From an uncultured virus (IMG/VR IMGVR_UViG_3300033068_001557) (taxonomy: Duplodnaviria > Heunggongvirae > Uroviricota > Caudoviricetes), in the IMG/VR virus record IMGVR_UViG_3300033068_001557: 64,000 bases of DNA, one strand, 5' to 3'. Positions 13,301-63,898 of the stretch are shown here, piece by piece. A model generated the notes under the pieces. The model had not been told where the DNA came from. It ran no database searches and saw only the letters and a program-made list of their open reading frames with translations. Position 1 is the first letter of the stretch. Each line of letters starts with the position of its first letter. The position numbers and the translations under genes are program-made.

Positions 13301-13651
13301 AGCACTTCCTAATAAAGTATCTCCTACAGTAATTAATGCTTTACCGCCTGCTTTAAGTATTGCGTTTTTAGTAGCTGTAAGATTTGACTGAGCATTTGCT
13401 CTCATATCTTCAATGTTACCTATATTAGTACCTATTTGAATACCTTTATCAGTATAAGATTGTACTTCTCTATCTGTTAATTTGTTAGGTGCAATTTCAG
13501 TAAAATTCTTAGATGATTTTGCATCTATAGAATTAAAAGGATCTGCAACATCTTTACTTTTTTGTACTGGTAAATTTGTTGTAGCATCTAATAGAGTAGT
13601 ATTACCTTGCTCTATAGCATCTATCATCTTAAATATATCTTCTTGTGGCAT
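1373..13651 (-). CDS. Giant virion-packaged RNA polymerase polyprotein (crAss-type two-barrel RNAP) with zincin-like metallopeptidase domain
   Basis: 4092 aa; catalytic loop NLSGADFDIDSL (DFDID at 2732-2746) preceded by GIRIPTEDKHSM; HEAFH (7595-7609) followed by LEEKMADAF; located after cargo genes as in crAss-like phages. Confidence 0.9.
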   Translation of the reverse strand: MPQEDIFKMIDAIEQGNTTLLDATTNLPVQKSKDVADPFNSIDAKSSKNFTEIAPNKLTDREVQSYTDKGIQIGTNIGNIEDMRANAQSNLTATKNAILKAGGKALITVGDTLLGSALSIPIAIVNGDFTKFYDNDVRRFFDNGSEYLDDNLKVYATKAQEQEGFFSQLNNAQFWGDKFLGGMSFTVGAVLSEMALSALTAATFGATAELQAAETASLMSRAKKIFSAFRGEASAAELKAWSKDIVKSGVAGGGYEAGVETRQFLDTARKNYAEQYKQQYGVEPNAQQLAEADGEIKKTANLIFGANMALLSVDNFIQFKNIFGKGLSTDLKLFGKSAVDTEAKDLAKDYALRGTLNAAFDNTSKLRKTLYTTSKVLKNPLTEMNEEALQGEFQAIGQDYIKKKFDATAYNDSFNLIESFGKNFKDTYGSEDAGIGFIIGAMGIPGMGIATGKTKNVKGFGNKIIASFEGGIAEAFEEQSQEKKAIKDAIKQASSVNIDNIKQQLQENSVLYKTTQERDEALKNGDFFSAKNAENDSIFSFIKTRDNVGLINESQEQYANMIKTMDNQEFAKQFGYNNIDNNERALTDNELSERKKKVIDAFNNKIKNFQETKDLASKVAPVRNFNDENARLYNEAIHHLMYTTNDLDSREDSLVNNIKDKLSKTKTIDTEKVKNLMNFHNTWYNLTQGQYSKHLQSYLKDLALLERYSAFQHTTSEEDAEYKENQAQVNKVQKRIKNYESLFEREITKFGENQSKLANHGFNIDYNFKDMDSFKNAITEYEALKNDIQTHLNQNIFDKNDIAQALQDLQKIQSKRHELIGTYNHLNTKEGQEEFIKGIEVTKREFKIQYLKGEAQKFLHNQGAEIDEDTVKEIKKNVDLQIDEKDDEITAEAKHQISELIDAVNDIDNINDLKEKIEELKAIKELEISDELKQVINKTIKEIKDKIKSIQDKVKEEVKTKKENKKLPIFHDIKNLFRLQNSEEQQKALNDAITSLDKTKTQSEKEEEFRSNVTFTFEEIENPKTVSETEPTINNENVKIVNGIQGTGFSYNLKMLYKGQELGGFTMPNQIYIKDSKGNWSQIDFTKLDNDNYLQWLLPHLFPQDIISTEEDRLVVGQYLSELNDFSKQLLFLLKDGVTVGSSKIRNYSFDELDKKVNGILSNNAFTSQTTMNITPSSEPRGVEEILDNPDDLITKSAVKNVNGQDIIIFGKSSPTGQGFSQKYFVKVINGKLERDSNNKVVWNNVEGSDLQLPISELFKSHENKDKSRFVDSKPALFSLIIFQPNGYIQPLYTTNETIGKLQNNEGEFVTEFIKNKKNIQPLTEKISTEVKNFFNKFKDKKSNEIDKSDTKYIRDIFFTVKNAGDSKIQITPLISPSGELSFQVQDISKNKSFVNTYIYFNGVNFVKINTKGNEKAIEVFNEFKESKITLAEKIEKLKPYSEVINDLNETIGNLLLSGKQFSKEDFQSDKKQFTVLNAVRQMTKNNKAVITGFYNNFLLNTENQQDLENLQIKQDLNYFLYLRPGNSKFLDITNFSENVRNREKQKQIKKAEDELLGILNQSNNEILEKQEEATTVEQVISNSPDAVSSNSVAIMDMLNPKVTNSLSEDDLLIQAAKNLGLDSDNLPMLKSSLARNSKLRTEVEKLKSSQEVKQEEKLVSEEVGRKDSSAYAKIAALEPKTTEQSLKETTKAETIPTTSNQSEIEAKKADIERRRREDLQKGQLFLMNDGTYGGSRLVSLEEYSTIQIQENNLDSDVTKWDYNTFNDTGIFVNLSLGVAYIVPNNSYNGKKAEVVKVFINKTTKRFDLSNPRIINTPNIELVAKAANIDSKELYNEVLNAITKYDAELAALGTNKKEEIKPTVVKNSPATDTLISLGLSLDDIIDSFDSSSNEDVFKMMHELFKKKYNIPQSLEEFLKIVNAAKLEGNDGGVNKLLKLSEQDLIEYNQAVKNLMQILPVKTKDNPNGVIEITDVLDILKNLKTKGEVAGRFISKMKTIYLATQEGKSVKGIEYHEAFHAIFRMFLTDSKITKYLKAAEELYGSPTKEQLTELKNSSSDLINLSQRELKNLWLEEKMADAFMDFTKTKTPVKQSWLQRIFTKIKDFINSLFGNKKVENDITRLFQDIYSGKFKNAKEKYPIQRKGVTSADVNKLLIRRQSLMTTTGAVVKKESYFSNVLSETIINTVTNEIAKQGIKTITNDEINNVIEKLRERFNPTNDYNQSLLQTIGDRSLRMRTFTQMSEVYSNLFYDKDKIELYKKLNKIQNADIIREEVLNRLPLYNISKEASTLQEQSDENINEVEDSENDYGDGDNNGIIGKKTNEINHAWEKASKRVKQYISSASMKTDLFNIGQPFINFMEQQEKEGNTDLVKNYEFAIRGSNLYSNLIKMLVNTPSYKMIGMVYSMADTSPEMKYFVQHWFKDIYNDLKDKIDIPVTNTSNLDDLYETLKSVSYSDLNNNSEYFTFMASDLEKNRIFLWDIVFDESGVTRFLNANNREVAKQVFNRWTKNWESKRVDDSVTFQKFIDDYNDIYEDSDKNILQDYVSILSKDLSSEEKVKEIKNHINKIQKEFSKLGIELPSGYIKYSLINYVVSINQQQLLSDKQYDWFINFSASGIKALDKEALAGIQNALLQAKTYETYSIYTNVKDGQVLDIGVISRLKDIGESVGMFDPTVIPSSFNNQEGKRIYDIVPPSDISRRLNLLKDTVNVSILKDYIKTKDADTFKKLVLNNDINNTYYFYGFFTSEKQVDNFLQTIDNNPLLQSKEDDYLNMIFSTLNMSYAGGIRQDELAVSERENSDELNISSKGYGLFSDSEGRSYSNADTTAKIVYQLSLLAESEYNQYNIKKVGEQKFAYYKFTQPESKSTVPIVLLPYNEMVNSSGITEKAKEMMFFMFKQEYDRITKVQKEIDEFINGKKSGYSENYHYVNEKFKDLGDVKVFKNSENKFYYLDINDNNIAKELTKQQLKEVSVSKLSPRGTKFFNFANIAVDLHTLTEDARKGIPLTTQKEDFINTELQRFFNIQFEDFIKLLKQTDINIIKVNDESQEVSNLLPEGFMQKDSNLVDRTKLMNAFLNDYVMSYSINSLMYGDNANVAKDAVDWVKRAGGIIGSGNNYGSGESNVIIIKSEVKDDTDTTDAQTFSNPFWHLTTILKNKGANDEKIREIYRKIDSGLETPTAEEYQYLYDNQAQHQSNKTQGYGFEHYLKTSIAPLLRSEVSRLKRYESKEDAIALHTKLFEYKLRFQNELFNPKYKNDENVIEYFKGLERYHNMFEAIPGMEYRHNLLNISEQHNAVMVYDSAWKRNKTNVHLIENGKPYLYKDNDGNNTIEPIRIANSSMVDQQKTDGVKNNIIDGTQKQRLIVTEQDANVIVKFRDKETTLKTVLSTYEKLQALRIKRGFDKLKKEIIDKDGSEKWETMLASFNESIQASSADPQILELFQIENGKPKYNLNNPAIETKYQAMFLSFISNGVLKQKTAGSKFTLMSEIGFNLMREVDGEGNIIRTLTNNETKNTYSFDKSKFISHRLRHDVEVRKYSTKQNGEISYDKDGKPIYKVLEYYSEIVVSERFLKKFGFTKEQFYKGEIPEQFLYLQGIRIPTEDKHSMINAKIVDILPDSYGNVIMMPYEIVNLSGADFDIDSLYAKVTQTYSNVLNKKTELYGSYLSKPTLEEASFQAYNEYLAESFEDRKVAHTFNDLKENNIELKKLQKERADIDGLLKENNKKLKEAINIDTIEFLQKEKQNIVKILNEVKDEIKSLELELIKQSFDINDILFNKEQWIAKNKETIETNYNYYNSTEESDVEKINPITKGELNNHLLELERKLTNNYGNNKIANTPTSLEIFKKLVKVLDKEGLIKKEMGYGIHDMLSKIKADMAISTGAANIGPAALFNNLFGLLVKYNVTTENPVLASNAFELLSLDKNNQEIIDEKEKQRIQDTLASVLAAMTDNAKEQLADVFNLTINTLPVALTMIATGNNFDNVMLLMKHPIVKRIAEIEASRNKTVQSEEDYRESRKQQGSIKQRIQAEFGLSDSEFQGNLTYDDLLNALKAQPKVTMWETVQTDIQKKYPEITEDMFDSLTEQEKDKLIECL

Positions 13652-42530: not shown

Positions 42531-45152
42531 TTATTTAGATGAAGATTTTGGTTTTTGTCTCGCAACATACTTCTTAACTTCTGCATCCATTTCAATCTTT
42601 TTATTTTGAAGAGTAGCATTTGTCTGACTATCACGTTCTTTTAAATCTAACTCTTTCTTTTTAATATCAAGTTCTTTATTCTTGATTTCCAAGTCTGTAG
42701 TTTGTTTATCACTTGCGATTTTAAGCTTAGCTACTTCAACAACATCTGGTTCATTATTATTATTTACATCTTGAGCTTGTTTGAATCTTGTAGCATCAAT
42801 TTCAGATTTAGCAAGTTCACCTTCAATCTTCATTTGAGTTATTTGAATTTCGTGTTCCTGTTCATCTTCTCTTGCTTCTATCTGCATTTGAGCAATTTGT
42901 TTTTGAGCTTCATCTTGTGCTTGAGCTGCTTGTTGTTGTCTTGCTTCAGAATCTAATTGCATTTTAGTAATCATTTTATGAATTTCTTCAGGAGATGTAC
43001 CTTGCGCACGAGCTTTAAGAATATAAGAAACTGTTTCAACAGAAGCTCCATTCTGAATCATCATTTTAGCCATTTCTGACATTTGATTAATATATTCAAA
43101 TTCTTTACCACTATCTGTTACAAACAATCCCATATCAGAATTTAAGAATTTTTCAGTATCTTTGATTTCCAATGTTTGTACTGTTAAATCACTTAACAAA
43201 TACTGACGTTTGATTTTTTTATCTTTCCATGCTATTTTAGCATAGTTGATGTAAGCTTCCATAATCTTTTTCCATAGTTCATTATGTTTTCTGAAGTAAT
43301 GTTCAGTAATATGAGAAGATTGTACAATAGCTTGTTGATTATCACTTACATTTGTATTAGATGAAAACTGAGCTTCTCTTTGTGGAGATACTCCACAAGC
43401 TAAGCCAATTTGAGCATCTAACCACCCTAATAACTGTAAAAGATTATTTAAATCCTGACCAATAGACATATTTTGTACAGAACCTGGTTGAGGTCTTGAA
43501 ATATTTGTTTGGGTAGGTTGTCCTCCAATATTGTTAATCATGGAGTTATAGATATTAATACCTTTTTGTCTATAGTAGAAAGTTTTAGATAATGCTTCAT
43601 TATATGGATCATCACTATCATTTCCTGCTAAATTAGGGTCAATCATTGATGTATCAAAATTTTGAATTGGACCAACTGCTTTAGGAATCATATCTTTAAT
43701 TTGATGTAATACTACAAAAAATAAAAACTGAAAAGGTTTCATTCTTGACATTAAAGAAATTGGTTTAGCATTCATACTATTAAATACACAACCATAATAA
43801 CCTAACTCAACATCAAAAGGATTATCAACACTATATGGTTGAAAAGGTTTTTCTCTAACATTTACATAAATATCACTATCAATTCTAATACCTTCCCATA
43901 CACGAGGAATCCACATTTTTTCTAATGTTACAGGATTTCCTACTTCATCTACCCATTCATATTGCTCTGATTTTTCACCAAATATATTAATGAATTTTAC
44001 TAAAGTAGCATCTTTAGGAATATCATATGAACTGTCTAAAATGTCCATTACTTCTTGACCATAATCATCTATTTTAGTTATAAAAGAAACTTCTCTTAAC
44101 CATTTCCATTCCATAGAAACTACAGTACAAAAAGTGTCATGTAAAAGTCTTTTATTAGCATTTACATCATCACTATAATTACCAATATTTCTTCCAATAT
44201 ATTGCATAGATGCAAGACTGTTCAAATATTGATTTGTAATAGTGCTTTCAGTGTTCATATCTAATTGACCAGTATATTGTTTACCAGTATAACCAGGAAC
44301 ACGTTTACGCAATTTTTCTAAATCTTTTTCATTTAAAACATGACCATATTGCTCAATTACTTTTTCTGCTGACATTACAAAAATCTCTCCTGCATAATCA
44401 CCATCTTGAATATAACGTATATTTGGTGTTTTAGAATAAAAAGTATTTAATGTATTACATAATTTGATTTTAGGTTCTCCTTTATGTACTCCAACATATA
44501 TAAATTCTTTATCTGAAAGTAATGCGTGTTTAAAACCATCATTTTTCAAACTTCGTACATCTTCTTTATACATACCATAATTAAGAACATGATTTCCTAA
44601 TATTTCTAATTCAGATAAAAAAGATGTTTTTTCAATGTCTTCTGGTGTTTTAGACTGTGTTACTTCATCACGAATTTTTTGAATTTCACTATCAGGTAAA
44701 CCTTGTTGTTGTGCTTCAATTATTCTTTCATTTTTTTCTATAACTTCTTGTATATAAGCAAGATAAAGATTTTTTAATTCTTCATCTTTTTCTTCTAATG
44801 CTTTAGCATTCATTAATGCTAAAATAAAGTTTGTGCCACGTTTATATTCTTCTCCTAAAAGAACATCTATTTTTGTATAAGTTTTATTATATGGTAATAC
44901 TTCTTCATCGTATTGTCCTACATCTATTCCTAAAGGATTACAGATTCTTTCAAAATCTTCTTGAGAAATATCATTGTTATAAAGTTTATAAGAAGATAAA
45001 TCATTATTATATTCTTCTACCCAATCTTTACTTCTTGTAAATGTTGGAATGATTTCTGTCATAACTTTTTTAGCTAGTTCACAATCATTTTTATATTTTT
45101 CTTCTTCAGGACATCTATACCTGTAGTTTAATTTTTCTGTTTCTGGTATCAT
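42531..45152 (-). CDS. Portal protein
   Basis: 873 aa directly after the terminase; KIDVLLGEE, WIPRVWEG, SLMSRMKPFQ and GVSPQRE motifs of crAss portals. Confidence 0.88.
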   Translation of the reverse strand: MIPETEKLNYRYRCPEEEKYKNDCELAKKVMTEIIPTFTRSKDWVEEYNNDLSSYKLYNNDISQEDFERICNPLGIDVGQYDEEVLPYNKTYTKIDVLLGEEYKRGTNFILALMNAKALEEKDEELKNLYLAYIQEVIEKNERIIEAQQQGLPDSEIQKIRDEVTQSKTPEDIEKTSFLSELEILGNHVLNYGMYKEDVRSLKNDGFKHALLSDKEFIYVGVHKGEPKIKLCNTLNTFYSKTPNIRYIQDGDYAGEIFVMSAEKVIEQYGHVLNEKDLEKLRKRVPGYTGKQYTGQLDMNTESTITNQYLNSLASMQYIGRNIGNYSDDVNANKRLLHDTFCTVVSMEWKWLREVSFITKIDDYGQEVMDILDSSYDIPKDATLVKFINIFGEKSEQYEWVDEVGNPVTLEKMWIPRVWEGIRIDSDIYVNVREKPFQPYSVDNPFDVELGYYGCVFNSMNAKPISLMSRMKPFQFLFFVVLHQIKDMIPKAVGPIQNFDTSMIDPNLAGNDSDDPYNEALSKTFYYRQKGINIYNSMINNIGGQPTQTNISRPQPGSVQNMSIGQDLNNLLQLLGWLDAQIGLACGVSPQREAQFSSNTNVSDNQQAIVQSSHITEHYFRKHNELWKKIMEAYINYAKIAWKDKKIKRQYLLSDLTVQTLEIKDTEKFLNSDMGLFVTDSGKEFEYINQMSEMAKMMIQNGASVETVSYILKARAQGTSPEEIHKMITKMQLDSEARQQQAAQAQDEAQKQIAQMQIEAREDEQEHEIQITQMKIEGELAKSEIDATRFKQAQDVNNNNEPDVVEVAKLKIASDKQTTDLEIKNKELDIKKKELDLKERDSQTNATLQNKKIEMDAEVKKYVARQKPKSSSK

Positions 45153-48100
45153 TATAATAACATTGATTTTGTAAAAGAACCTTCTAATAACGCTCTTCTT
45201 TTTTTAACTTTTTGATTTTGTCTATTGAATAATGAGTCATTGTTTGCTAACAATGAAAGCGGATTATTTCTGTTTATTACTTGTGCTTCATATTGATTTA
45301 TTTTTTCTCTTAAACCAACAACACAACCTACTAATGCCATGCAATTATGAACAAGAACATTATTTGCAAAATAAGTATTATCATCTAATACTGATAAATT
45401 ATAAGTATCTTCAATTCTATTTGTTTTTTCTACTTTTTTTACTTTACAATAAAAACCCTCTTCTTTTTCAATTGCATTTAATTTTATTCTTTCTCTTTTA
45501 TAAGTTGGTTCAAAATCAAATTTAGAAGAACATTTAAATATTTTTGTATAAGTATAAGGAATATCAATAGCTAATTGTTCTTGATTTTTTTCTTGAGGTC
45601 TAACTCTGATACTGGAATATATAGAATTGTCTAATAGCATTTGTCTAATTAATCGCATAGCTAATTTATTAGTATTAGATATTTGAATGTTTCCTTTAGC
45701 TTTTGTTTTATGACCCTCTGCCTCTAAAAATCCTAATAAAAAGTGAAAATTATTTTTTGAATTAAATACTTTTTCATTAATTTGTTTATTACTTGTAGTC
45801 CCACAATTTTCATTTAACCATTCTTTTATTGGTTTTGAAAACTTTTCTAAACTATACCAATTTTTTTTATCTTTAATTCTTGTAATGTTAGTAGAATCAA
45901 TAGCATCTAATATATTTTTTATTTTTTCTGCTTGTTCTAGTTCTTTATTAGAAAAAATAAATTTAACTAAATTATTACTTTTATTAATATTTCCATCTCC
46001 TAAAAACCATCCAAGCAAATATAATTCATCATTTGTATAATATTCTTCAGTTAATTTTCTTTTAGGTAAAAGGACAAAATCCTTAGAAGTTAAATCTTCA
46101 GCATTTGTATATTTCTCATTTAAAAGACTATGTCTAGTATTATGCTTAACTGTTTTATTATATTTTGTATAAAAAGGATGATTAGCTGTAGTTTCAATTG
46201 GAGAAGAATCTCCCTCAATATATACATTTACTATTTCTGCTTTATTTTTATGAGTTAATACTACAGGATGATAATCTAAAGATTTTGTTAATACTAAATC
46301 TCCTTCTTGAATATTATCTATTGTTTTTAATCCTTTGTTTGTTGTAATTAAAGTATTTTTAGAAAAACATCTATCATAATTACCTTTATCTAAGTCAAAG
46401 GCAATTAATTCTCTGACTAAGGCTATATCAGGAAGTCTTTCTAAATTTCTTTTTGTTACACCATTTACTAGTGTTTCTTCTTTTAACCATTCAGCTAACA
46501 TATCTATTAACTGAACTTTTGATAAACGATTTCCTGTTATCCATCCATATTCAGCTACTGGTCTTTTTAATATTCTTACACCTTTTTCTATTTGTGGTCT
46601 TAAACATAATTGATGTAATTTATGTTTCTTTTCAAAATATCCTTTTACATAATCACCTCTATTTCCTTCAAACCATAAACCTTGTAATGGAGAACCATAC
46701 ATCATTAGTATTTTTTCTACATTTTCTAAAAATCTTGTTCTACCTAAAGAGTGTTTACCTGTATAACCACAAACTATTTCATTACCTCCATATCCTAAAG
46801 CAGAATATTTTGGATTTTTCATAACATATACTGAACCTAATGATTCACCATCTTCAAGATTTTCACTCACATAAGGGTCAAATCCTACAAGGTCATACAT
46901 ATCATTTGGTACTTCACCATTAATTTCTATTGGTGCTTCATACATCATTATACAACCTTCAACATTACTGTCTCTTTTTGCAGGGTATTCATAAATAGGT
47001 TCTACATTTTCTAATACTTTATAATCAACTCCTGTTTTTTTAGAAGAGTCAAAATAAATATCAATTGCAGTGCCTCTTTTTTTATAGTTATTATGAAGTA
47101 ATAATGATTTTTCAACTTCTTTTAATTCTGTAACAGGTAGTATTTTTCCTTCTCTACCTAAAAACATTTCTGAAGGAACTAAAGGGAAATTCATTAATTC
47201 TGCATCATATGCTTGGGAAGAAACTTTTTTAGCATTAGCTCTTCGTTTTTCATAAAATGCTTTTGCTTTTTCTACATCTGTATTACCATTTTCATCTTTA
47301 AAGTCATTATTAATGTAATATGCAGGAAGAAAAAATCCTATTTCTCCTGTATGTTCCCATATGTCGTTATATGCTAATATGTTATACCCTCTTGGTTCTG
47401 TAAATAATATACGTGCTTCAACAATTTTATCAATATTACCTGCTGTTCCTAAGTAGTGAGTACTGCCAAATTTTGTACTATCCACTATTTGACAAGCATC
47501 ATTACTACCATGTACTGTTAAAATATTAGGTACTAAACCTAATTCCTCAACTGTAATTCTTGCTGGTCTTGTACCAGCAGCAGCTTCAGGATTATCTGTT
47601 GTAAATGATACATGTAATATTTTAGAACCTGAACCAAAACCTCCAATCCATCTACCATTTACTTTTTTTTCATATTCATGTCTGTATGGATTTTTAGCAT
47701 TATTTGGTTCAAGAGAACCTTTCATATCTTTATAAAAAGGTGATGGTTGATAATCATCATCTCCTGGTTTTCCCCAACAACCCAATTCAACATTGGTTGC
47801 AAGTTCTGTCATTGCAAATTTTATTTTATCACAAAACTCATTTGATTTAGATGTTAATGCAGCACCAATAAGAACTTCTGTTTTAGCAGGATTCTTTCTT
47901 GTTTCTTCGGTATATTCTTTAGCTCCGTCAAATACTATTTCATGGAGATTAACTCCTAATGCATACCAATATGATTTACCACCACCCCTCGAATTATGTG
48001 TAACTAAATAATTTTCAAGTAAAAATAAATTATCTTTATCGATTTCAAAACCATAAAAGTCTTCTACTTTTCCACTAGTTAAATCTATTTCTATCTTGTT

Positions 48101-49528
48101 TCTAGTACTTCCTTGTTTGTTTGTATCTCTGGCTTTTTTTCTTTCTATTTTACATGGTATTTTAGAAATGTTTCCAGTTATTCTTAAATTATATTTTAAA
48201 CTATTTGTTAAACCTGTTATAGAAGGTTTGTGTATTTTTGCAATAAATCCTAATGATTGAGCAAGTTCTCTAGTTTGTTTTAAGAGATTTAAATCAATAT
48301 TGCAAATAGTATATCTACCTCTATCATAATGACCATCACTGTCTATAAAACCTGCTAATAATTCTAATCTTTGATTTATTGAAGATAACATGTATTCCTG
48401 TGGAATATGTTTATTGTTTAAAAAAGTATTAGACCACCAATTGTTTTTATGTAACATTGTATTATCTATAAGTCTAAACCTTGTTGTATAAGAATTTGTT
48501 AATCCAGATTTTGATTGTGTTTCTGTATAAGAAAATCTTTCTTCTGAATTAGCATAATTTACTAACCAATCTTTTATTTCTTTATCAGCTTGTTCATTAA
48601 TACAAATTAGTTTTTCTCTTTTAAACCCATCACCTAACCACAATCCTATAAAGTATGGATGAAGTTTTAAATCTTTTTCTGGATATTGAATTGCTTCACT
48701 TTTTATAGCTTCAAAATGATAATTGTGTTTTGTTTTAGGTTTATCTAAATATTCATTTGTATCAAGGGTTAATATATTTCCATTGCTTATATCTCTTATT
48801 TGGTGTAAATGAGAATCAGTACATCTAAAGCTTCCATTATAATTTGTGTGAACATCATACATTAAGCCTTTACCTCTTACAAGATTTTGTACTGTTCTTG
48901 GAGTAGAATCTATCCCCATTAATTTATCTCCAACTTGAATATCTTTACTATATTTCAAAGAACCATCAAACATTCTTACTTTTACACTTTCATGTAAACA
49001 ACCCATTTCAATAGTATTAGAAGCATTATTATGATATAACGGTTTACCTAAAGGTTGAGAATGTAGTCTTCTTAAATAATCACGAGGGTTTTCATATTGT
49101 TTTAATGTGCCATCACCTTTAAAACATTCTTTTGGTAAATCTTTTTTATCTTTTTCACTTAATGTTCCTATTACTTTTGGATGTAAAAAAGAGTTACAAG
49201 ATACATATTCATCATCAGAAAATCCTGAAAAACCAAATGATTCTAAACAAGCATAAGCTCTTTCCCATTCCAAATCACGCAAGGAAGGTTTAATTCTATA
49301 ACGAGCTTTTTTCTTTTTTTCAGCATGTAAAATTATACAGAAATTAATATAGAAAAATAGATTTCCTGGCATAAATCTATAACCATCAAAATCTTTTCCC
49401 CATAAACCTTCAATACATTTCTTTTTATAGTCTCGCCATAAAAGAGTATGTCTTGGGTCATCAGGATGAAAATTAGGTATTTCTTTAATTAACCAATTTT
49501 CACGATTTTCTATTGTAATGAAGTTCAT
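45152..49528 (-). CDS. terL: Terminase large subunit with two inteins
   Basis: Walker A reconstituted as EMG|SRGGGKS; Walker B ITVEELG; nuclease GFDPY and GNYDR|CMA; predicted mature length 780 aa. Confidence 0.93.
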   Translation of the reverse strand: MNFITIENRENWLIKEIPNFHPDDPRHTLLWRDYKKKCIEGLWGKDFDGYRFMPGNLFFYINFCIILHAEKKKKARYRIKPSLRDLEWERAYACLESFGFSGFSDDEYVSCNSFLHPKVIGTLSEKDKKDLPKECFKGDGTLKQYENPRDYLRRLHSQPLGKPLYHNNASNTIEMGCLHESVKVRMFDGSLKYSKDIQVGDKLMGIDSTPRTVQNLVRGKGLMYDVHTNYNGSFRCTDSHLHQIRDISNGNILTLDTNEYLDKPKTKHNYHFEAIKSEAIQYPEKDLKLHPYFIGLWLGDGFKREKLICINEQADKEIKDWLVNYANSEERFSYTETQSKSGLTNSYTTRFRLIDNTMLHKNNWWSNTFLNNKHIPQEYMLSSINQRLELLAGFIDSDGHYDRGRYTICNIDLNLLKQTRELAQSLGFIAKIHKPSITGLTNSLKYNLRITGNISKIPCKIERKKARDTNKQGSTRNKIEIDLTSGKVEDFYGFEIDKDNLFLLENYLVTHNSRGGGKSYWYALGVNLHEIVFDGAKEYTEETRKNPAKTEVLIGAALTSKSNEFCDKIKFAMTELATNVELGCWGKPGDDDYQPSPFYKDMKGSLEPNNAKNPYRHEYEKKVNGRWIGGFGSGSKILHVSFTTDNPEAAAGTRPARITVEELGLVPNILTVHGSNDACQIVDSTKFGSTHYLGTAGNIDKIVEARILFTEPRGYNILAYNDIWEHTGEIGFFLPAYYINNDFKDENGNTDVEKAKAFYEKRRANAKKVSSQAYDAELMNFPLVPSEMFLGREGKILPVTELKEVEKSLLLHNNYKKRGTAIDIYFDSSKKTGVDYKVLENVEPIYEYPAKRDSNVEGCIMMYEAPIEINGEVPNDMYDLVGFDPYVSENLEDGESLGSVYVMKNPKYSALGYGGNEIVCGYTGKHSLGRTRFLENVEKILMMYGSPLQGLWFEGNRGDYVKGYFEKKHKLHQLCLRPQIEKGVRILKRPVAEYGWITGNRLSKVQLIDMLAEWLKEETLVNGVTKRNLERLPDIALVRELIAFDLDKGNYDRCFSKNTLITTNKGLKTIDNIQEGDLVLTKSLDYHPVVLTHKNKAEIVNVYIEGDSSPIETTANHPFYTKYNKTVKHNTRHSLLNEKYTNAEDLTSKDFVLLPKRKLTEEYYTNDELYLLGWFLGDGNINKSNNLVKFIFSNKELEQAEKIKNILDAIDSTNITRIKDKKNWYSLEKFSKPIKEWLNENCGTTSNKQINEKVFNSKNNFHFLLGFLEAEGHKTKAKGNIQISNTNKLAMRLIRQMLLDNSIYSSIRVRPQEKNQEQLAIDIPYTYTKIFKCSSKFDFEPTYKRERIKLNAIEKEEGFYCKVKKVEKTNRIEDTYNLSVLDDNTYFANNVLVHNCMALVGCVVGLREKINQYEAQVINRNNPLSLLANNDSLFNRQNQKVKKRRALLEGSFTKSMLL
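45344..46369 (-). mobile_element. Intein 2 (342 aa) with LAGLIDADG-type endonuclease
   Basis: CFSKNTLITT...TANHPF...LLGWFLGDG...FLLGFLEAEG...YNLSV...VLVHN followed by Cys. Confidence 0.92.
47993..49000 (-). mobile_element. Intein 1 (336 aa) with LAGLIDADG-type endonuclease
   Basis: CLHESVKVRMFDG...FIGLWLGDG...LLAGFIDSDG...FYGFEID...LVTHN followed by Ser. Confidence 0.93.
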
Positions 49529-50853: not shown

Positions 50854-50854
50854 G

Positions 50855-50927
50855 TAGCGGGAGGTGGATTTGAACCACCGACTTTCAGCTTATGAAACTG
50901 CCGAGCTACCAACTGCTCCATCCCGCT
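50855..50927 (-). tRNA. tRNA with CAT anticodon (Met)
   Basis: AGCGGGA/TCCCGCT acceptor stem, GAGC/GCTC D stem, TTCATAA loop, GGTGG-TTCAAAT-CCACC T arm; CCA not encoded. Confidence 0.9.
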
Positions 50928-54350: not shown

Positions 54351-54661
54351 ACACATCTGTCTCTATATCGTTAAATAACCCCAGTCTACTGATTGGAGTT
54401 GTTTGATTGTTTACTGTTACCTAAATGTATAACCTTAAATGATTTTGTATATAGATATTATTGGTCTGGAATTAGTCATCAACTAATGCTTTTAGCTTAG
54501 TCATGTGAGGTAGTTTATTCATTCCCATCAATAATGTCTTAATGAGGAGAGTGCTTGGTAGGTGTTAGCTCTCCTCTCACAAAAGACATACACCTAAGCA
54601 AGTGTATAAACTGCTTTAATTTTTATAAATAATACATTATTAATCAACTAAATAAAATAAC

Positions 54662-54964
54662 ATGATTTGGATAACATCAGAAAGAAAAAATATTCCTATA
54701 TCTCAAATGGATAGCACACATTTAGAGAATACTATTAATTGGATAACTGAAAATAACAGACCTTCCTGTATAATTAATAATCATGAAGCTATTGTTTGGA
54801 TAAAAGCAATGTCTAAAGAACTAATCAATAGAGAAATAGCTGTTATGAAGAATAATATAGCTGAATTAAGAAAGCAAAATTTAGAATTATTAGCTAAATA
54901 TAATAAAGAAGTTGAGGAATTAGCTTTATTTGAAGCTGCTAATAATGTATTGGATAGATTTTAA
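54662..54964 (+). CDS. Hypothetical protein
   Basis: W...IPISQMDSTHLENTI motif plus coiled coil; A-rich leader. Confidence 0.7.
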   Translation: MIWITSERKNIPISQMDSTHLENTINWITENNRPSCIINNHEAIVWIKAMSKELINREIAVMKNNIAELRKQNLELLAKYNKEVEELALFEAANNVLDRF

Positions 54965-55446
54965 AATATATCTCCAAAGTGAGTAGTTATTTAAAGAGAT
55001 TAATAACTACATGAATAAAGGATAGCTCATATTAAAACTAGAATATAAATGAAGAATTTATATTAGAGGAGTACACTTCAGCTTAATGTAGCTGCCACTT
55101 TATTTTTTTGTATAAAAAACAAGGAATAACAATCAGCGTTTGTTTTTAGTAAATATATTTCTGTCATTTTATATGACAGGATATCTGTTGATTTTTGAGT
55201 GTGTGGAAGTTGAGATGATAGAAATATTGTCTCAACTTATTGTTATTCAATGTGTTGTAAGTGTTTTATGGAGTGTTGGATGAATGACATATTGTCTGGT
55301 ATGTACACCACCCCACATTTTATCATTAAATCAATTCTATAAAATCTGACCTAATGTCAGTAAATATATATCACAATTATAAAAAACTCAATAACATTCC
55401 AAGATGTTGAGGACACCAGTTTCTTTGATATATTAACAATGTAATG

Positions 55447-55578
55447 CTTACACAGCCAGACTTTTGAAAAAGTCATAGTAAGAAATATTACAGTTAATGC
55501 AAGGTCGGTCTTATACTCCTTAGCTTAATTAGCTGAAACTCTGATGTTGTGCAGATATGTGCAAAGGAAGCTGTTAAG
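55447..55578 (+). ncRNA. Candidate small structured RNA (multi-stem junction)
   Basis: Closing CTTA-c-ACAGC/GCTGT-TAAG; internal hairpins GACTTT/AAAGTC, GTAA/TTAC, TAGCT/AGCTG, TTGTGCA/TGTGCAA; no ORF. Confidence 0.4.
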
Positions 55579-55674
55579 GTAGTAAGAATGAAAATACAAT
55601 AGAAAACTCTTGTTGTACTATATCAAAGTTTTAGGTGTAAAACACAATTTTCTTAACTCTCTAAATAAAAAACA

Positions 55675-55863
55675 ATGGAAAAAATAGATTTGACTCCAGA
55701 AGAATACTCTGCATTGATAACTAATTACCCAGAAAAACACCAATTGTATTATATTTGGGTAGGTATTTTAGCTTGTAGAGGATATAAAATTCCTTTTACA
55801 TTATCTGAATTAAACGTAAAACATATTTCTAATAAAAGCTATTTAGTAAATGTAAAAAAATAA
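55675..55863 (+). CDS. Hypothetical protein
   Basis: 62-aa ORF with A-rich leader. Confidence 0.55.
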   Translation: MEKIDLTPEEYSALITNYPEKHQLYYIWVGILACRGYKIPFTLSELNVKHISNKSYLVNVKK

Positions 55864-55942
55864 ACTTTTAGAGAGTCTGGCTGAGATAATATCAAAGCTG
55901 GACTCTATAAAAATTGTTAACTCTCTAAAAAATCAAAACATT

Positions 55943-56287
55943 ATGGAACAATATCACATTTTTCACAGTAAACCTAATGAATTCATGTTTACTGAAACAG
56001 AAATCCAACCAAGAGAATATGTTGGATTTGTTAATGCTAATTCTATTGAAGAAGCATTTAAACTATCACAAAACATTGAATCAAATTGGAATCCAACTAA
56101 TCCTTGTAGAAGTACAAGTGTTGGGGATGTAATTCAAGAAGATGATAAATTTTTCATGGTTTGTAGTGTAGGTTTTAAAGAACTTCGTACAGAAGAAGAA
56201 ATAGCTAAAGATTTAGACATTGAAGAAATGTATGAAGATTTGGCTACTATAGCTGATAAGGAAGAAGAATCTAAATATCAACAATAA
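55943..56287 (+). CDS. YodL-like domain protein
   Basis: EEAFKLSQN...RSTSVGDVI...FMVCSVGFKE pattern. Confidence 0.55.
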   Translation: MEQYHIFHSKPNEFMFTETEIQPREYVGFVNANSIEEAFKLSQNIESNWNPTNPCRSTSVGDVIQEDDKFFMVCSVGFKELRTEEEIAKDLDIEEMYEDLATIADKEEESKYQQ

Positions 56288-56299
56288 AATCAATTAAGT

Positions 56300-56458
56300 A
56301 TGAAAAAGTTATTCCTTGATACAATACAAGAAGTAGAGAATTTAAAATCTTTACTTAAATGTGATAAAGTAACTTATCATTATCTAAAGATGAAAGGACA
56401 ATATTTATTTAAATATCCTTCTGATTTAGAAGAAAAAGTACATGATTTAGGTTATTAA
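56300..56458 (+). CDS. 52-aa hypothetical protein
   Basis: MKKLFLDTIQEVENLKSLL...VHDLGY*; not in the track. Confidence 0.5.
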   Translation: MKKLFLDTIQEVENLKSLLKCDKVTYHYLKMKGQYLFKYPSDLEEKVHDLGY

Positions 56459-56524
56459 AACCACATCAATCATAGTATAAAAATAAATGTCAGTTTGTTT
56501 GAGCCTTGTTCTGACTTTAAACTC

Positions 56525-57542
56525 GTGAAGGCATTCTATCCAGTAAGCTACTGGCGGTGGTTCACCATACTAGACAAGTGAATATTTTTATCAAGTTAGA
56601 AAACTTGGTTACTGTAGCAATACAGTATATAATTAGGGTGAGAATCCCTGAAGTTTATCAGTTTATATGGCTTATATCTTGTCTTGAACAAGTATTAGTG
56701 CGACAAAACTGTTTGGCAGGTTTCTTGTCATTAGAATAACCTATGAATTCATAAGTAGGGAAAGTATTATGAACACCATGTCATAATGCACTGAAAGAGT
56801 AATTTTTCAGGTCATATGAAAACCAATATAATATCTACATTATGTAGTAACTGAATGCCCAGCAAGCTGAAAGTGAATGTAATGTAGACTTGGGACTGAC
56901 CATCTTGAGTTGAGTGGTAACACAATAAGAATTATATTGATTTGACTCCAAAAACTCCTTAGCCAGAGTTATAGAGTCATTTACAATACATTGTATTTCC
57001 TATGTAGCTTTTACCAAAAAGCTCATGAGTGTGGTAACTCATTAGAAATAGTAGGATAGGTAGAAATACTGATAAATTCAATGTAAAGAGTAAGTATTCT
57101 TGGCAGAAGAAAGCACGAGGTTGTCGTAGTTAAACCATTCAAAAGATGGCAAACTAACAAGACAAACTACAACCTTAACACGGTTTGGTATAAATAATAC
57201 ATTATATTATTAACACCAATTATTCTAAGATAATAAAGCAAAAGTGTTTGTCACACATAGAACAAAATAACCTTATCCTGCTGTAATATGTAGGTAATAG
57301 AGTCTCGCAAGGAATCTATTAAGGTGAAATGGATTATCATTCTAAGTGCAGGGATGTACTGAAGCTTTCCAAAGCAGATGGTAAAAAAGAGTAATCTATA
57401 ACTCTATGTGTAGTGTTTGTAAGTTTTATAAACTTATGGTTATGTCTGTTACCTATTAGAAATAATAGGTGTGATTAAGTCTTGAAAAAGACGAAAATGC
57501 AGATAGTAAAGGTCAAATCTCAGCCTTCACCCTTAAAAGGGT
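56525..57542 (+). ncRNA. Candidate large (~1 kb) structured non-coding RNA, possibly GOLLD/ROOL-class
   Basis: No credible ORF; GTGAAGGC (56525-56532) pairs with GCCTTCAC (57523-57530); many hairpins, several capped by GNRA tetraloops on the plus strand. Confidence 0.7.
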
Positions 57543-57567
57543 ATTTTATAATTTAAAACCACTCAAC

Positions 57568-57786
57568 ATGAAAAATTTAATTATATTAATATTGTTATTT
57601 ACTGCTTGTAAAAAAGAAAAATACACAGCAGATAACTGTCCTGCAAGAAATGCAAGATATTTTTATTACAACGATAACACAACTGAAACTTGTTGTGCAA
57701 AAAGTATTAGTCCTTGTGATGCTAAAACAATACAAGAATTTAAAAATAACTGTCCTTCAGGATGGGTTGTTAAATATGCACCTTAA
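57568..57786 (+). CDS. Small Cys-rich lipoprotein
   Basis: MKNLIILILLFTA-CKKEK lipobox; five further Cys residues. Confidence 0.7.
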   Translation: MKNLIILILLFTACKKEKYTADNCPARNARYFYYNDNTTETCCAKSISPCDAKTIQEFKNNCPSGWVVKYAP

Positions 57787-57990
57787 ATTTATTATTCATT
57801 ATAAATCAACAGATTATGAAAAAAAATCAGTATCAAGCACATCTTACAGCTATGTTATTAGCAGGAGCTACTGTTTGGCATTTTTAAAATGCAATCTCTT
57901 TTTCAAGCGTACTTGTACAATGCTTAGTTTTGTGAGCGATAATCAAAACTTCTATTTTTTATTCAATATGTCACAATATAAAATCAACAC

Positions 57991-58155
57991 ATGAAAACAA
58001 TAATTATTACATTAATCATAATTGTCGTTTTAGGATTAACTAAATGGTTAATGCATTGGAAAAACGAACAAACAATAAAATCATTTTTACATATATCTGA
58101 TGATAATGTCACAGATTTTGAATGTGGTTATGGTAAAAATAAAAGCACTCAGTAA
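57991..58155 (+). CDS. 54-aa membrane-anchored protein
   Basis: MKTIIITLIIIVVLGLTKWLMHW...; not in the track. Confidence 0.5.
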   Translation: MKTIIITLIIIVVLGLTKWLMHWKNEQTIKSFLHISDDNVTDFECGYGKNKSTQ

Positions 58156-58498
58156 TTAACCTAAACGATTTCCTGTAGTAATGGTATTAGATATTTACCA
58201 AATTAAATATGATAATTCATATAATGTTGAGTACGTTTATCTAAATGATTTTAAATAATTCTAAGGTATTCTTTGTGATATTCAAACAGGTAATGTCAAT
58301 AAAGCCTGTGTTGCATGAGATGTATGATAGTCCTAAGCTATTACAGAGAATATTGAAGAAAAAACGACATTTCTACTATACTTAAATGTATAAGCTGTTA
58401 TCCAAACAAGATTAATTACAACAAAAAAGATTTAATATCCTCTGTAATAAGATTAATTATAACAGTTGTAGAAATGTTTACTTTTAAAACTTTAAATT

Positions 58499-58672
58499 AT
58501 GAATAACTTAAAAAAAGAATATGCTATTGATGGTTATGAAGAAGATTTACTTGTAGCAAGAAAAATGTACTGTTATTTAAGAAATAATTCTAAAAATGTT
58601 AGGTTTCTTAAAAAGAAAATGAACAAAAGATTTAGAAAATTTAACAAAAATATTGACAACTTTAAAGAATAA
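58499..58672 (+). CDS. 57-aa basic hypothetical protein
   Basis: MNNLKKEYAIDGYEEDLLVARKMYCYL...KKKMNKRFRK; abuts the next ORF. Confidence 0.6.
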   Translation: MNNLKKEYAIDGYEEDLLVARKMYCYLRNNSKNVRFLKKKMNKRFRKFNKNIDNFKE

Positions 58673-58675
58673 AAT

Positions 58676-59044
58676 ATGAATATATTTAGTTGGTTTAAAT
58701 TTAAACCTAAACAACAAAAAGTTAAAAAAGAATTTGTATTTCAAATTTATGAAGTAGTCAAAATAGGAGATTTATATAGATATACAGTAAAAGCTTCTAA
58801 TAAAGAAGAAGCTTTTAAAAAATTAGTAAAATACTTCTTTGGACAAAATAATAATCAGGAAATTGAATCTAAACACTTAAATACAAATTATCCCATGCAT
58901 GAAGTATTTGAATACAAAAATATGCCTTATTGGTTTGCTAAAAGAATATCTGGGCATGTTAGAGATAAATCATATGATTATCAAAAAAAATTAGAAAAAT
59001 ATTGTATTGATAATAATATTAAATTAAAATCTTATGAATCATAA
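58676..59044 (+). CDS. Hypothetical protein
   Basis: 122-aa ORF in the early operon. Confidence 0.65.
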   Translation: MNIFSWFKFKPKQQKVKKEFVFQIYEVVKIGDLYRYTVKASNKEEAFKKLVKYFFGQNNNQEIESKHLNTNYPMHEVFEYKNMPYWFAKRISGHVRDKSYDYQKKLEKYCIDNNIKLKSYES

Positions 59045-59390
59045 CTTATTAACATACATATTAACACTAATTATAGTGTTTTTGTGTGCATTAAATTCTA
59101 ATGCAAAAGAACTTAAAGTTACTTATTATTATGAACAAACCCCTGAATATGAACTAATTAGAAAAGATACTTCTATATTAATATCATTAAAAGGGGAAAT
59201 TATTAAAATAGGTGATAAAGTGTTTATTGCTGAAAAAAGAAAATGCTATTATTCATCAGATGATTACATGATATTTGATGAGTATAAAATAGGCAAAACT
59301 AAAATTACTTTTAATTTAAATCCTGATAATGGAAATATATTACAAGTAGATTTTAAATTAAATAACCAAATTTATTATTACAGACCATGA
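59034..59390 (+). CDS. Hypothetical exported protein
   Basis: Signal-peptide-like N-terminus ending SNA-KE. Confidence 0.6.
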   Translation: MNHNLLTYILTLIIVFLCALNSNAKELKVTYYYEQTPEYELIRKDTSILISLKGEIIKIGDKVFIAEKRKCYYSSDDYMIFDEYKIGKTKITFNLNPDNGNILQVDFKLNNQIYYYRP

Positions 59391-59530
59391 CAAAAGAACA
59401 ATTAAAATTATTTTATGAATTATTAGACACTAAAAATTCATGGGGTAAAAATGAAATAAAAACATTATTATTGGAAATAACAAGTGGGATTATAACTTCA
59501 TTAGAAGATTTTAAACAATTAAATAAATAA
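59387..59530 (+). CDS. 47-aa hypothetical protein
   Basis: MTKEQLKLFYELLDTKNSWGKNEIK...; ATGA overlap with the previous gene. Confidence 0.55.
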   Translation: MTKEQLKLFYELLDTKNSWGKNEIKTLLLEITSGIITSLEDFKQLNK

Positions 59531-63013: not shown

Positions 63014-63033
63014 TTAATTTTTTTTATTGTAAT

Positions 63034-63105
63034 TGTCTGTTAGTTCAATGGATAGAACTATTGATTTCTAATCAATTAATACAAGTTCGATTCTTGTACA
63101 GACAA
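63034..63105 (+). tRNA. tRNA-Arg(TCT)
   Basis: TGTCTGT/ACAGACA acceptor stem, GTTC/GAAC D stem, ATTGA-TTTCTAA-TCAAT anticodon arm, ACAAG-TTCGATT-CTTGT T arm. Confidence 0.88.
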
Positions 63106-63148
63106 TTACATTTATTTTTTTTTTGGAACTAATGTAATTTTAAATTTT

Positions 63149-63478: not shown

Positions 63479-63874
63479 GGGGCTGTACAGGCTTTGCTTT
63501 CAAACAGAAGGAAATAATTTAGGTAGAGAACAAACTCTTTAAAATGAAAACACAATTTTAAATGGCAATAATGCTAATCAAGATCAAAAATCAACTTTAT
63601 TTGTATCTCATAAAAATGTAGATGCAATTTGTGCTACTATTGAAAGATCAGTAAACACAAGTAAGTTGGAGCTAATTGCAGCTTAACAAACAAATGCAAG
63701 AAGGAAGTTTCTATATCTTCTGATATTTAAAATATAGTGGTGGATTTTTGACAATTTATTGTCAACCCTTTTTAGATTGGAATCTAAAGTTAGTAAACTA
63801 TGATTAACCTATACCTATAAATAAAATTATTTTTGGAACTTTGGAATACATGGGTTCGATTCCCATCAGCTCCA
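63479..63874 (+). ncRNA. ssrA: tmRNA (phage-encoded)
   Basis: 5' GGGGCTG pairs with 3' CAGCTCC-A including the G3:U70 Ala determinant; T arm ATGGG-TTCGATT-CCCAT; internal tag frame 63564-63686 ends ELIAA-TAA. Confidence 0.9.
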
Positions 63875-63898
63875 CAAACAACTTAAAATCAACAAATT

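Follow-up and report, generated by a model that had tools for sequence, protein, structure and literature searches.

The gene-free gap and its RNA

The window is a 64,000-nucleotide (nt) stretch of DNA from an uncultured virus of the Caudoviricetes (IMG/VR IMGVR_UViG_3300033068_001557), and the element under study is a locus of ~1.0 kb at positions 56530-57550 on its plus strand, for which the original prediction had proposed a large structured non-coding RNA. The locus sits among small plus-strand genes, in a gap of 1,109 nt between an upstream open reading frame (ORF) that stops at 56458 and a downstream one that begins at 57568. The largest ORF inside the gap (56459-57567) is a GTG frame of 60 amino acids (aa) at 56557-56739 and the remaining ones are shorter, in agreement with the predicted absence of a credible ORF over ~1.1 kb. 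A coding reading of the gap was rejected, as this sole 60-aa ORF falls in a variable, indel-rich part. The GC content is 0.30-0.36 within the gap compared to 0.24-0.28 in the flanks, and the segment is indeed less AT-rich than its surroundings. All of the predicted helices and hairpins were found in place, two of the helices with one G-U pair each (Table 1). The locus is very probably the gene for a non-coding RNA of the GOLLD family, on a divergent branch that scores under the Rfam cut-off.

An end-to-end match to the GOLLD model

A permissive Rfam scan of 56300-57750 (both strands, E<=10) returned seven matches. The GOLLD model (RF02032) matched at 57116-57526 on the plus strand, over 411 nt that cover model positions 1-416 of 416, with 100.5 bits and an E-value of 7.5e-27; the next-best matches all had E>3. 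ROOL, group I/II introns and RNase P were absent from these seven matches at E<=10, in line with the earlier judgement that an intron is unlikely. The gathering cut-off for RF02032 is 150 bits, which is a curation threshold and not a biological feature, and the match is therefore overlooked by a standard scan: at the gathering threshold, the whole window gave two tRNAs and a tmRNA-like match only, and no entry for GOLLD. Against 14 control genomes, RF02032 produced no match at E<=0.001.

Further inspection of the Rfam alignment revealed that the window retains the upper-case signatures UCAAAAG, AAAGCAAAAGU, CGCAAG, the GAAA hairpin and AAUCUCAGCCU. The UCAAAAG loop, AAAGCAAAAGU, the CGCAAG hairpin and the AAUCUCAG terminal loop are common to the window, 15 canonical GOLLDs and 24 members of the clade described below. 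The RF02032 model spans the conserved 3' half only; in the env-38 GOLLD, residues 1-420 are described as the 5' domain and residues 421-833 as the 3' domain (PMC12286853). Of the two identities first considered, an enlarged GOLLD-like RNA or a new class, the former is favored by the full-model match and the shared covarying helices, and the latter fell away. The prediction had also held that a strong full-length GOLLD match would remove the novelty. The match is full-length but not strong (100.5 versus 150 bits), and therefore we assign the RNA to a separate GOLLD branch, with which part of the novelty remains. Judged from its sequence and that of its relatives, the candidate RNA is genuine, conserved and structured; it is homologous to GOLLD and probably works like one.

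Conserved structure of the 3' domain

The 3' domain was analyzed on an alignment of 24 full-length 3' domains (termed A3). RNAalifold gave 69 pairs on A3, of which 58 have compensatory changes; with three window-derived helices added, the structure comprises 84 pairs, and 88.1% of the alignment cells are paired. Shuffled controls reached 70.5 ± 0.6% (0/500 as high) and slid partners 33-43%. Changes on both sides were observed for 68 of the 84 pairs, compared to 30-39 when slid. Among the 17 helices, 14 have 89-100% of cells paired. Several helices picked out beforehand proved to be conserved parts of this domain, namely GAGGTTGT/ACAACCTT (helix 1), ACCTATTA-GAAA-TAATAGGT (helices 14-15) and GTCTT-GAAA-AAGAC (helix 16).

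The domain opens with a hairpin in whose loop the CAAAAG is invariant in all 24 rows of A3, and closes with a terminal hairpin that corresponds, in the alignment, to the final hairpin in the Rfam model. Between the first hairpin and the conserved AAAGCAAAAGU lies a variable linker equivalent to J13/15. Two relatives carry a complete tRNA within this linker (L267:721-1180, on a 386-kb viral contig, with the tRNA at 1025-1098, and L273:726-1203, with the tRNA at 1032-1104), and a tRNA within J13/15 is known from published GOLLDs (PMC12990946).

Hairpin loops at the P21a/P21b position

Two hairpins of the 3' domain, A and B (Table 1), were tentatively assigned to the P21a and P21b positions, because in the canonical sample the first hairpin of the junction alternates between CGCAA and GUCGAA, and this GC/CG alternation matches the switch described for L21a (PMC12286853). 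Hairpin A has four invariant inner pairs, and both of its outer pairs covary (AU 15/GC 9; AU 17/GC 5/CG 2). In hairpin B, 100% of cells are paired, three of the four pairs covary, and the loop region UUCCAA is invariant in A3. The GGGA loop of hairpin A is present in 30/35 relatives, all 30 of which have the partner UUCCAA, in one case as CCCCAA. Neither loop contains a self-complementary dinucleotide, in the window or in these 30 relatives; instead, GGGA can pair with UUCC through two G-C, one G-U and one A-U pair. The five relatives without GGGA (L264, L268, L267, L271 and L275) have GC/CG-bearing loops in both hairpins, the second loop of L264 being read by eye, and occupy three places on the tree of 3' domains.

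In the published accounts, the half-shells of env-38 are joined by the self-interacting kissing loops L21a and L21b together with an A-minor contact (PMC12286853), and the layers of the Streptococcus agalactiae GOLLD (termed Sag) by L21-L21 and by docking of the L24 tetraloop on P21 (PMC12990946). Since the loops of the window RNA cannot self-pair but are complementary to each other, we propose crosswise a-to-b contacts.

The 5' domain

The 5' domain comprises ~580 nt upstream of the 3' domain, with a conserved core of ~400 nt. It was analyzed on an alignment of 18 sequences that share the 5' type of the window (termed A4), onto which the structure was placed from window motifs. The 99 pairs have 72.3% of cells paired on A4, compared to 55.7 ± 0.8% in shuffles (0/500 as high) and 37-44% when slid. 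Covariation among homologues, suggested beforehand as a check, is seen in both the 3' and the 5' domains. Helices 6, 7, 9, 10, 11, 12 and 20 are 87-97% paired with compensatory changes, and among these seven are the predicted long-range helices CAATATAAT/ATTATATTG and TCTACATTAT/GTAATGTAGA. The predicted hairpin CTGAAAGA-GTAA-TTTTTCAG reaches only 63% on the MAFFT columns but folds in 18/18 single sequences, mostly with a GNRA loop, and the predicted helix TACATTG/CAATGTA closes a three-way junction that recurs in ~11/18 single folds.

The first ~180 nt (56536-56713) vary freely except for the 5' hairpin, which in the general form CUAUCC..UAAGYU..GG is present in the window, L261, L268, L271 and L275, with the stem variants CCAG/CUGG, CCUC/GAGG, CUGG/CCAG and CCGG/CCGG. 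The hairpins at 56592-56648, among them two elements singled out beforehand (TACTGTA-GCAA-TACAGTA and GGGTGAGAATCCC), turned out to be window-specific, as helices 4-5 of A4 are only 47-49% paired and most rows are gapped. The 8-bp helix thought to join the two ends of the RNA was not sustained either: an equal or longer run arises in 48/2000 shuffles of the 5' segment, L111 shares the 3' tail exactly but has no 5' partner for it, the other relatives give only A/T-rich 7-8-mers at inconsistent places, and the helix uses a GCC whose local partner is the GGU of the terminal hairpin, a helix with 100% of its cells paired. Upstream of 21 canonical GOLLD loci, a profile of the 5' core picked up only noise (E>6), which fits the published description of the GOLLD 5' region as less conserved (PMC12286853).

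A separate branch of relatives

A blastn search in distant mode with 56480-57560 against 50,697 phage records returned no match, and relatives were collected by pattern scans. In IMG/VR, the pattern AAAGCAAAAGTNTTNGTC occurs at 86 loci, and 80 of their records were scanned with RF02032: 24 exceeded the cut-off (176-332 bits), and a single match, that of L111, fell short of it (91.8 bits). L111 is also the nearest full-length relative of the window. Two motifs drawn from the window-L111 alignment led to L118, L204 and L201. The shared motif TGCAGGGATGTA-N8-TTCCAA was found at 9 viral and 42 metagenome loci, or 41 extracts after removal of duplicates, 30 of which are homologues of the 3' domain by iterated nhmmer. 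A motif of the 5' domain added 11 viral homologues; in genome contigs, the same motif gave 12 loci and no homologue. In total, the scans yielded ~40 non-redundant relatives. Most of these are located among tRNAs, and their flanking genes are not common to them.

With RF02032, L204 scored 113.5 bits, L201 71.1 bits and L118 nothing; 14 of 17 loci scored 63-107 bits, with nothing for L227, L240 and L118; and of the 11 loci from the 5' motif, five scored 74-103.5 bits and six nothing. The scored relatives thus fall at 63-113.5 bits (23 sequences) or at nothing (9 sequences), and none reaches 150 bits, compared to 176-332 bits for the 24 canonical GOLLDs, although the sampling was shaped by the search patterns and the gap from 113.5 to 176 bits may be partly an artefact. 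In a FastTree phylogeny of 50 3' domains, the topology of which was taken without support values, the midpoint root separates the canonical from the divergent set. The 3' domain of the window is 43-46% identical to canonical GOLLDs and 48-99% to the divergent set. Such a GOLLD branch, overlooked by standard annotation, would broaden the family.

Strand, ends and signs of expression

Both parts of the RNA fold better than dinucleotide shuffles on the plus strand, with a z-score of -3.17 for the 5' part (0/100 shuffles as good) and -3.69 for the 3' part (1/100), as the proposed folding check had anticipated. The minus strand of the 5' part has a z-score of -4.47, and therefore folding energy gives no strand choice. 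The plus-strand call holds nevertheless, because of the GOLLD model match and a terminator-like site on the plus strand (57529-57542), directly 3' of which lies ATTTTATAAT. Two terminator-like sites were found in a 1.6-kb scan, compared to a shuffle mean of 0.5. A sigma-70 promoter scan gave 10 sites against a shuffle mean of 8.9, which is no excess, and the sigma-70 consensus is ill-suited to Bacteroidota hosts or crAss-like phages. A recurring upstream motif, AAAACCACNTCAA, was dropped, since it has two matches but 17/100 shuffles also reach two. The span 56530-57550 was set from the ORF-free gap, the 5' hairpin starting at 56536, the GOLLD match, the terminator-like site, and contigs from RNA libraries that fall within 56543-57530.

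The stretch, in whole or in part, was found in 20 sequencing runs from 13 studies, six of which are recorded as RNA; the labelled runs are wastewater, activated sludge, sludge or freshwater metagenomes. For four RNA-library runs, each from a different study, contigs were placed on 54500-59500. In run X15, the contig depth is 728-1229 inside the RNA, 2.4-3.7 in two contigs just upstream (56161-56567), and 91 in a contig spanning 57209-57971. Runs X17 and X19 have contigs at 56647-57530 and 56671-57443 and almost nowhere else, and the contig depth in run X20 is low and even. One X17 contig, at depth 144, matches the conserved 5' block only, and as its flanks resemble those of L277/L272, a relative is also present in the X17 library. 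We take these contigs as a hint of expression of the locus and no more, and flank segments that lack contigs were left out of account.

Table 1. Positions of the RNA, its structural elements and the sequence motifs checked in the window.
Feature	Position	Strand	Basis or remark
Whole GOLLD-like RNA, ~1.0 kb	56530..57550	+	5' end predicted; 3' end set by terminator
Pair GTGAAGGC / GCCTTCAC	56525 / 57523		motif check
Conserved 5' hairpin CUAUCC-AG-UAAGCUA-CU-GG	56536..56556	+	covarying stem, 5/12 relatives examined
Variable 5' region: hairpins 56592-56607, 56610-56627 (GCAA loop), 56636-56648	56557..56713	+	sequence
GNRA hairpins, four	56610, 56791, 57451, 57479		motif check
GGGTGAGAATCCC	56636		motif check
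Conserved 5' core	56714..57115	+	homologous in 18 sequences; compensatory changes
5'-core helix	56715-56729		
5'-core hairpins	56740-56759, 56944-56978, 57097-57108		
5'-core GNRA hairpin	56791-56810		
5'-core GUAA hairpin	56914-56923		
5'-core long-range helices	56824-56832/56931-56939, 56834-56843/56879-56888		
5'-core three-way junction	within 56987-57085		
Pair CAATATAAT / ATTATATTG	56824 / 56931		motif check
Pair TCTACATTAT / GTAATGTAGA	56834 / 56879		motif check; one G-U pair
Pair TACATTG / CAATGTA	56987 / 57079		motif check
GOLLD 3' domain, P13/P14 to P27 equivalent	57116..57526	+	RF02032 match; covariation
Pair GAGGTTGT / ACAACCTT	57117 / 57169		motif check; one G-U pair
First 3'-domain hairpin, loop UCAAAAG 57139-57145	57117..57176	+	helices 1-2: 94.8%, 99.2% paired
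Variable linker, J13/15 equivalent, local A/U-rich hairpin	57177..57235	+	length and sequence vary among relatives
Conserved AAAGCAAAAGU	57236-57246	+	directly 3' of variable linker
Hairpin A, P21a position, AGUGCA-GGGA-UGUACU	57345..57360	+	helix 10
Hairpin B, P21b position, GCUU-UCCA-AAGC, loop region UUCCAA	57364..57375	+	helix 11
GAAA-capped hairpin, L24 equivalent	57451..57470	+	helices 14-15: 96.7%, 93.8% paired; aligns to Rfam consensus GAAA hairpin
Terminal hairpin GGU-CAAAUCUCA-GCC, P27/L27 equivalent	57511..57525	+	helix 17: 100% paired; CUCA invariant
Intrinsic-terminator-like stem-loop ACCCUUAAAAGGGU, then AUUUUAU	57529..57550	+	terminator scan; kept in L111, one loop change

The host phage and other features of the window

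Comparison with PHROGs identified a portal, a major head protein, a large terminase, virion proteins, an endolysin and a polymerase exonuclease on the minus strand. The portal matches 129 phage records, none of which reaches 60% identity; the best 12 listed share 27-29% with it, and most belong to crAss-like phages of Bacteroides, Flavobacterium and Cellulophaga. By these protein matches, the host of the RNA is a distant crAss-like phage, which would extend the GOLLD family to crAss-like phages; among the papers searched, none names both.

The minus-strand large terminase ORF (45152-49528) has 1458 aa, with terminase matches at residues 177-1065, and its residues 1054-1399 resemble anaerobic ribonucleotide reductase (phrog_26446); the ORF may be a fusion or contain an inserted element. 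A 4092-aa ORF on the same strand (1373-13651), beside the virion-protein genes, has no PHROG match at E<=1e-5. The giant virion proteins of crAss-like phages include a packaged RNA polymerase. On the plus strand, the 72-aa ORF downstream of the RNA (57568-57786) is cysteine-rich and starts with a hydrophobic stretch ending in cysteine, which suggests a small secreted or lipid-anchored protein. At 63479-63877 (plus strand), just 3' of tRNA-Arg(tct) (63033-63106), a full-model tmRNA match to Rfam has 53.8 bits, compared to a cut-off of 47, and an E-value of 2.4e-18; ARAGORN made no call there.

A second ORF-poor stretch of ~700 nt (54965-55674) lies in the same region of small plus-strand genes. 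It folds with a z-score of -2.61 against 20 shuffles, has no Rfam match better than E 0.2 and no look-alike among 289 loci, and is covered at 55103-55650 by X15 RNA-library contigs with a depth of 60-377. Contigs of X15 and X20, from two studies, skip 524-526 nt within 54577-55102, which holds a 100-aa ORF (54662-54964), as well as 182-190 nt within 55431-55620. These skips may reflect either an indel between strains that involves a small mobile gene, or splicing.

Proposed assembly and alternative interpretations

By analogy with the solved GOLLD structures, copies of the RNA would assemble into a closed, two-layered homo-oligomeric shell, in which the 3' domains would make the rings and the 5' domains the caps, with the variable linker facing inward. 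The layers would be joined by crosswise GGGA:UUCC contacts between the loops at the P21a and P21b positions, not by self-pairing, and with the changed loops and the larger 5' cap, a copy number other than 14 or 12 would be likely. We put forward, as a tentative proposal, that the RNA stands for a GOLLD sub-family of its own, which would be widespread among large phages of the environment, crAss-like phages included. In this sub-family, the self-pairing loops would have been replaced by complementary GGGA/UUCC loops that close the shell crosswise, and the copy number and size of the shell would differ from those of the 12-mer and the 14-mer. The branch would be a natural experiment for learning how the size of an RNA shell depends on its loop-loop contacts and 5' cap. 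Within one 5' type, the GGGA/UUCCAA pair of loops is exchanged as a unit for canonical-like GC loops, and the branch thus offers matched constructs for cryo-electron microscopy.

A number of observations weigh against the overall interpretation of the locus as a divergent, shell-forming GOLLD RNA. The RF02032 score of 100.5 bits is under the curated cut-off, and no tRNA adjoins the RNA, the nearest being 5.6 kb upstream (50854-50927) and 5.5 kb downstream (63033-63106). Since each structure was taken from the window itself or from the alignment consensus, the contrast with slid controls is inflated. The three helices added from the window alone (3, 4 and 9), among them ACACAUAGA/UCUAUGUGU and GGAUUA/UAAUCU, are weak on A3 (33-55% of cells paired), which may reflect alignment register or real absence, and several 5' helices are only 34-63% paired on the MAFFT alignment A4. 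As no sequence similarity to the upstream DNA of the 21 canonical loci was found, the 5' domain could be either a homologue or an analogue of the canonical P1-P13. The RNA-library contigs give neither ends, strand nor level, and RNA libraries can hold DNA. As for the loops, neither GGGA nor UUCCAA shows variation at single bases, so that their pairing has no direct compensatory support; GGGA, being a GNRA tetraloop, may dock in a receptor instead of base-pairing; and the coupled loop switches depend on the topology of the FastTree phylogeny, taken as above. Shell assembly itself is argued here from analogy.

The RNA might instead be an ordinary GOLLD with the same kind of shell, in which the changed loops and the larger 5' domain came about by neutral drift and only the sensitivity of Rfam leaves a gap; we consider this somewhat unlikely. 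It accords with a 5' region described as less conserved and with the description of Sag, without P21b, as a 12-mer and env-38 as a 14-mer (PMC12990946). Moreover, the 806 GOLLDs of Kretsch et al. are reported as gathered at E<=1e-5, not at the gathering score, and may include sub-threshold variants (PMC12286853), and the five relatives that share the 5' core but not the GGGA loop retain canonical-like CGCAA loops. However, the scores in our sample are bimodal (63-113.5 versus 176-332 bits), and neither loop is able to make the L21a/L21b self-pairing contact. GGGA and UUCCAA are invariant in 24/24 aligned sequences while their stems covary, which indicates selection rather than drift.

A GOLLD-derived RNA that has lost the layer-joining loops and forms no closed shell, but acts as a monomer, a small oligomer or a protein-bound scaffold, is improbable. 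Such an RNA would explain why the P21a and P21b loops both have no self-complementary dinucleotide, and the isolated Sag 3' domain is described as assembling variably, into 8-, 10- and 12-mers, and would thus be sensitive to such changes (PMC12990946). Nevertheless, the other contact elements are kept, namely the GAAA hairpin equivalent to L24, the UCAAAAG loop and L27, and the strict conservation and mutual complementarity of the two replacement loops suggest a retained contact.

It is highly improbable that the locus holds no discrete RNA gene, but a long structured leader or spacer of the 72-aa gene at 57568-57786 or a decaying GOLLD remnant. A contig of X15 (record 7, depth 91) does read from 57209 through the terminator to 57787, and the promoter scan showed no excess; however, the contig depth inside the RNA is 8-13x that of this read-through contig in the same run, and the consensus scanned does not suit the host group. 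In addition, the terminator-like site at the 3' end of the RNA is kept in L111, both domains covary across relatives from differing genomic contexts, and these relatives lie among tRNAs with differing flanking genes. Finally, a new RNA class unrelated to GOLLD, its model match due to convergence or compositional bias, could appeal to the score under the cut-off, a cmscan bias term of 28.4 bits and a 5' domain with no detectable canonical counterpart, but is close to refuted by the end-to-end match in model order at E 7.5e-27, the identical signature motifs, whose order agrees with that of 15 canonical sequences, and the absence of control-genome matches at E<=0.001.

Comparison with known cage RNAs

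To our knowledge, GOLLD and ROOL are the only natural RNAs that form closed protein-free shells. The window RNA resembles ROOL in being a large ornate phage RNA of a kind that forms shells, but ROOL is absent from the E<=10 Rfam list for 56300-57750. It shares with the RF02032 family the UCAAAAG loop, AAAGCAAAAGU, the CGCAAG and GAAA hairpins and the AAUCUCAG terminal loop, is likewise phage-borne, and has relatives that lie in tRNA clusters and in some cases hold a tRNA in the variable linker, whereas the window RNA itself has no adjoining tRNA. It also differs from canonical GOLLDs in its score (100.5 versus 176-332 bits), in the 43-46% identity of its 3' domain, and in a 5' core for which no sequence similarity to canonical upstream DNA was detected.

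The two solved GOLLDs are given as 833 nt and 700 nt long (PMC12286853, PMC12990946). Compared to the 833-nt env-38 GOLLD, described as a 14-mer cage (Kretsch et al. 2025, PMC12286853), the window RNA has the same two-domain build with the 3' helices in model order, but is longer (~1.0 kb), with a 5' domain of ~580 nt versus 420 nt, and has GGGA and UUCCAA in place of the self-pairing GC/CG loops of P21a and P21b. The 700-nt S. agalactiae GOLLD is described as a 12-mer, its 3' domain alone giving 8-, 10- and 12-mers (PMC12990946). By that description, it has altered P21 and 5' helices and still assembles with another copy number, as we infer for the window RNA; yet it lacks P21b and relies on an L21-L21 self-contact, whereas the window RNA keeps two hairpins with non-self-pairing loops, and has a 5' domain that is larger, not smaller (PMC12990946).

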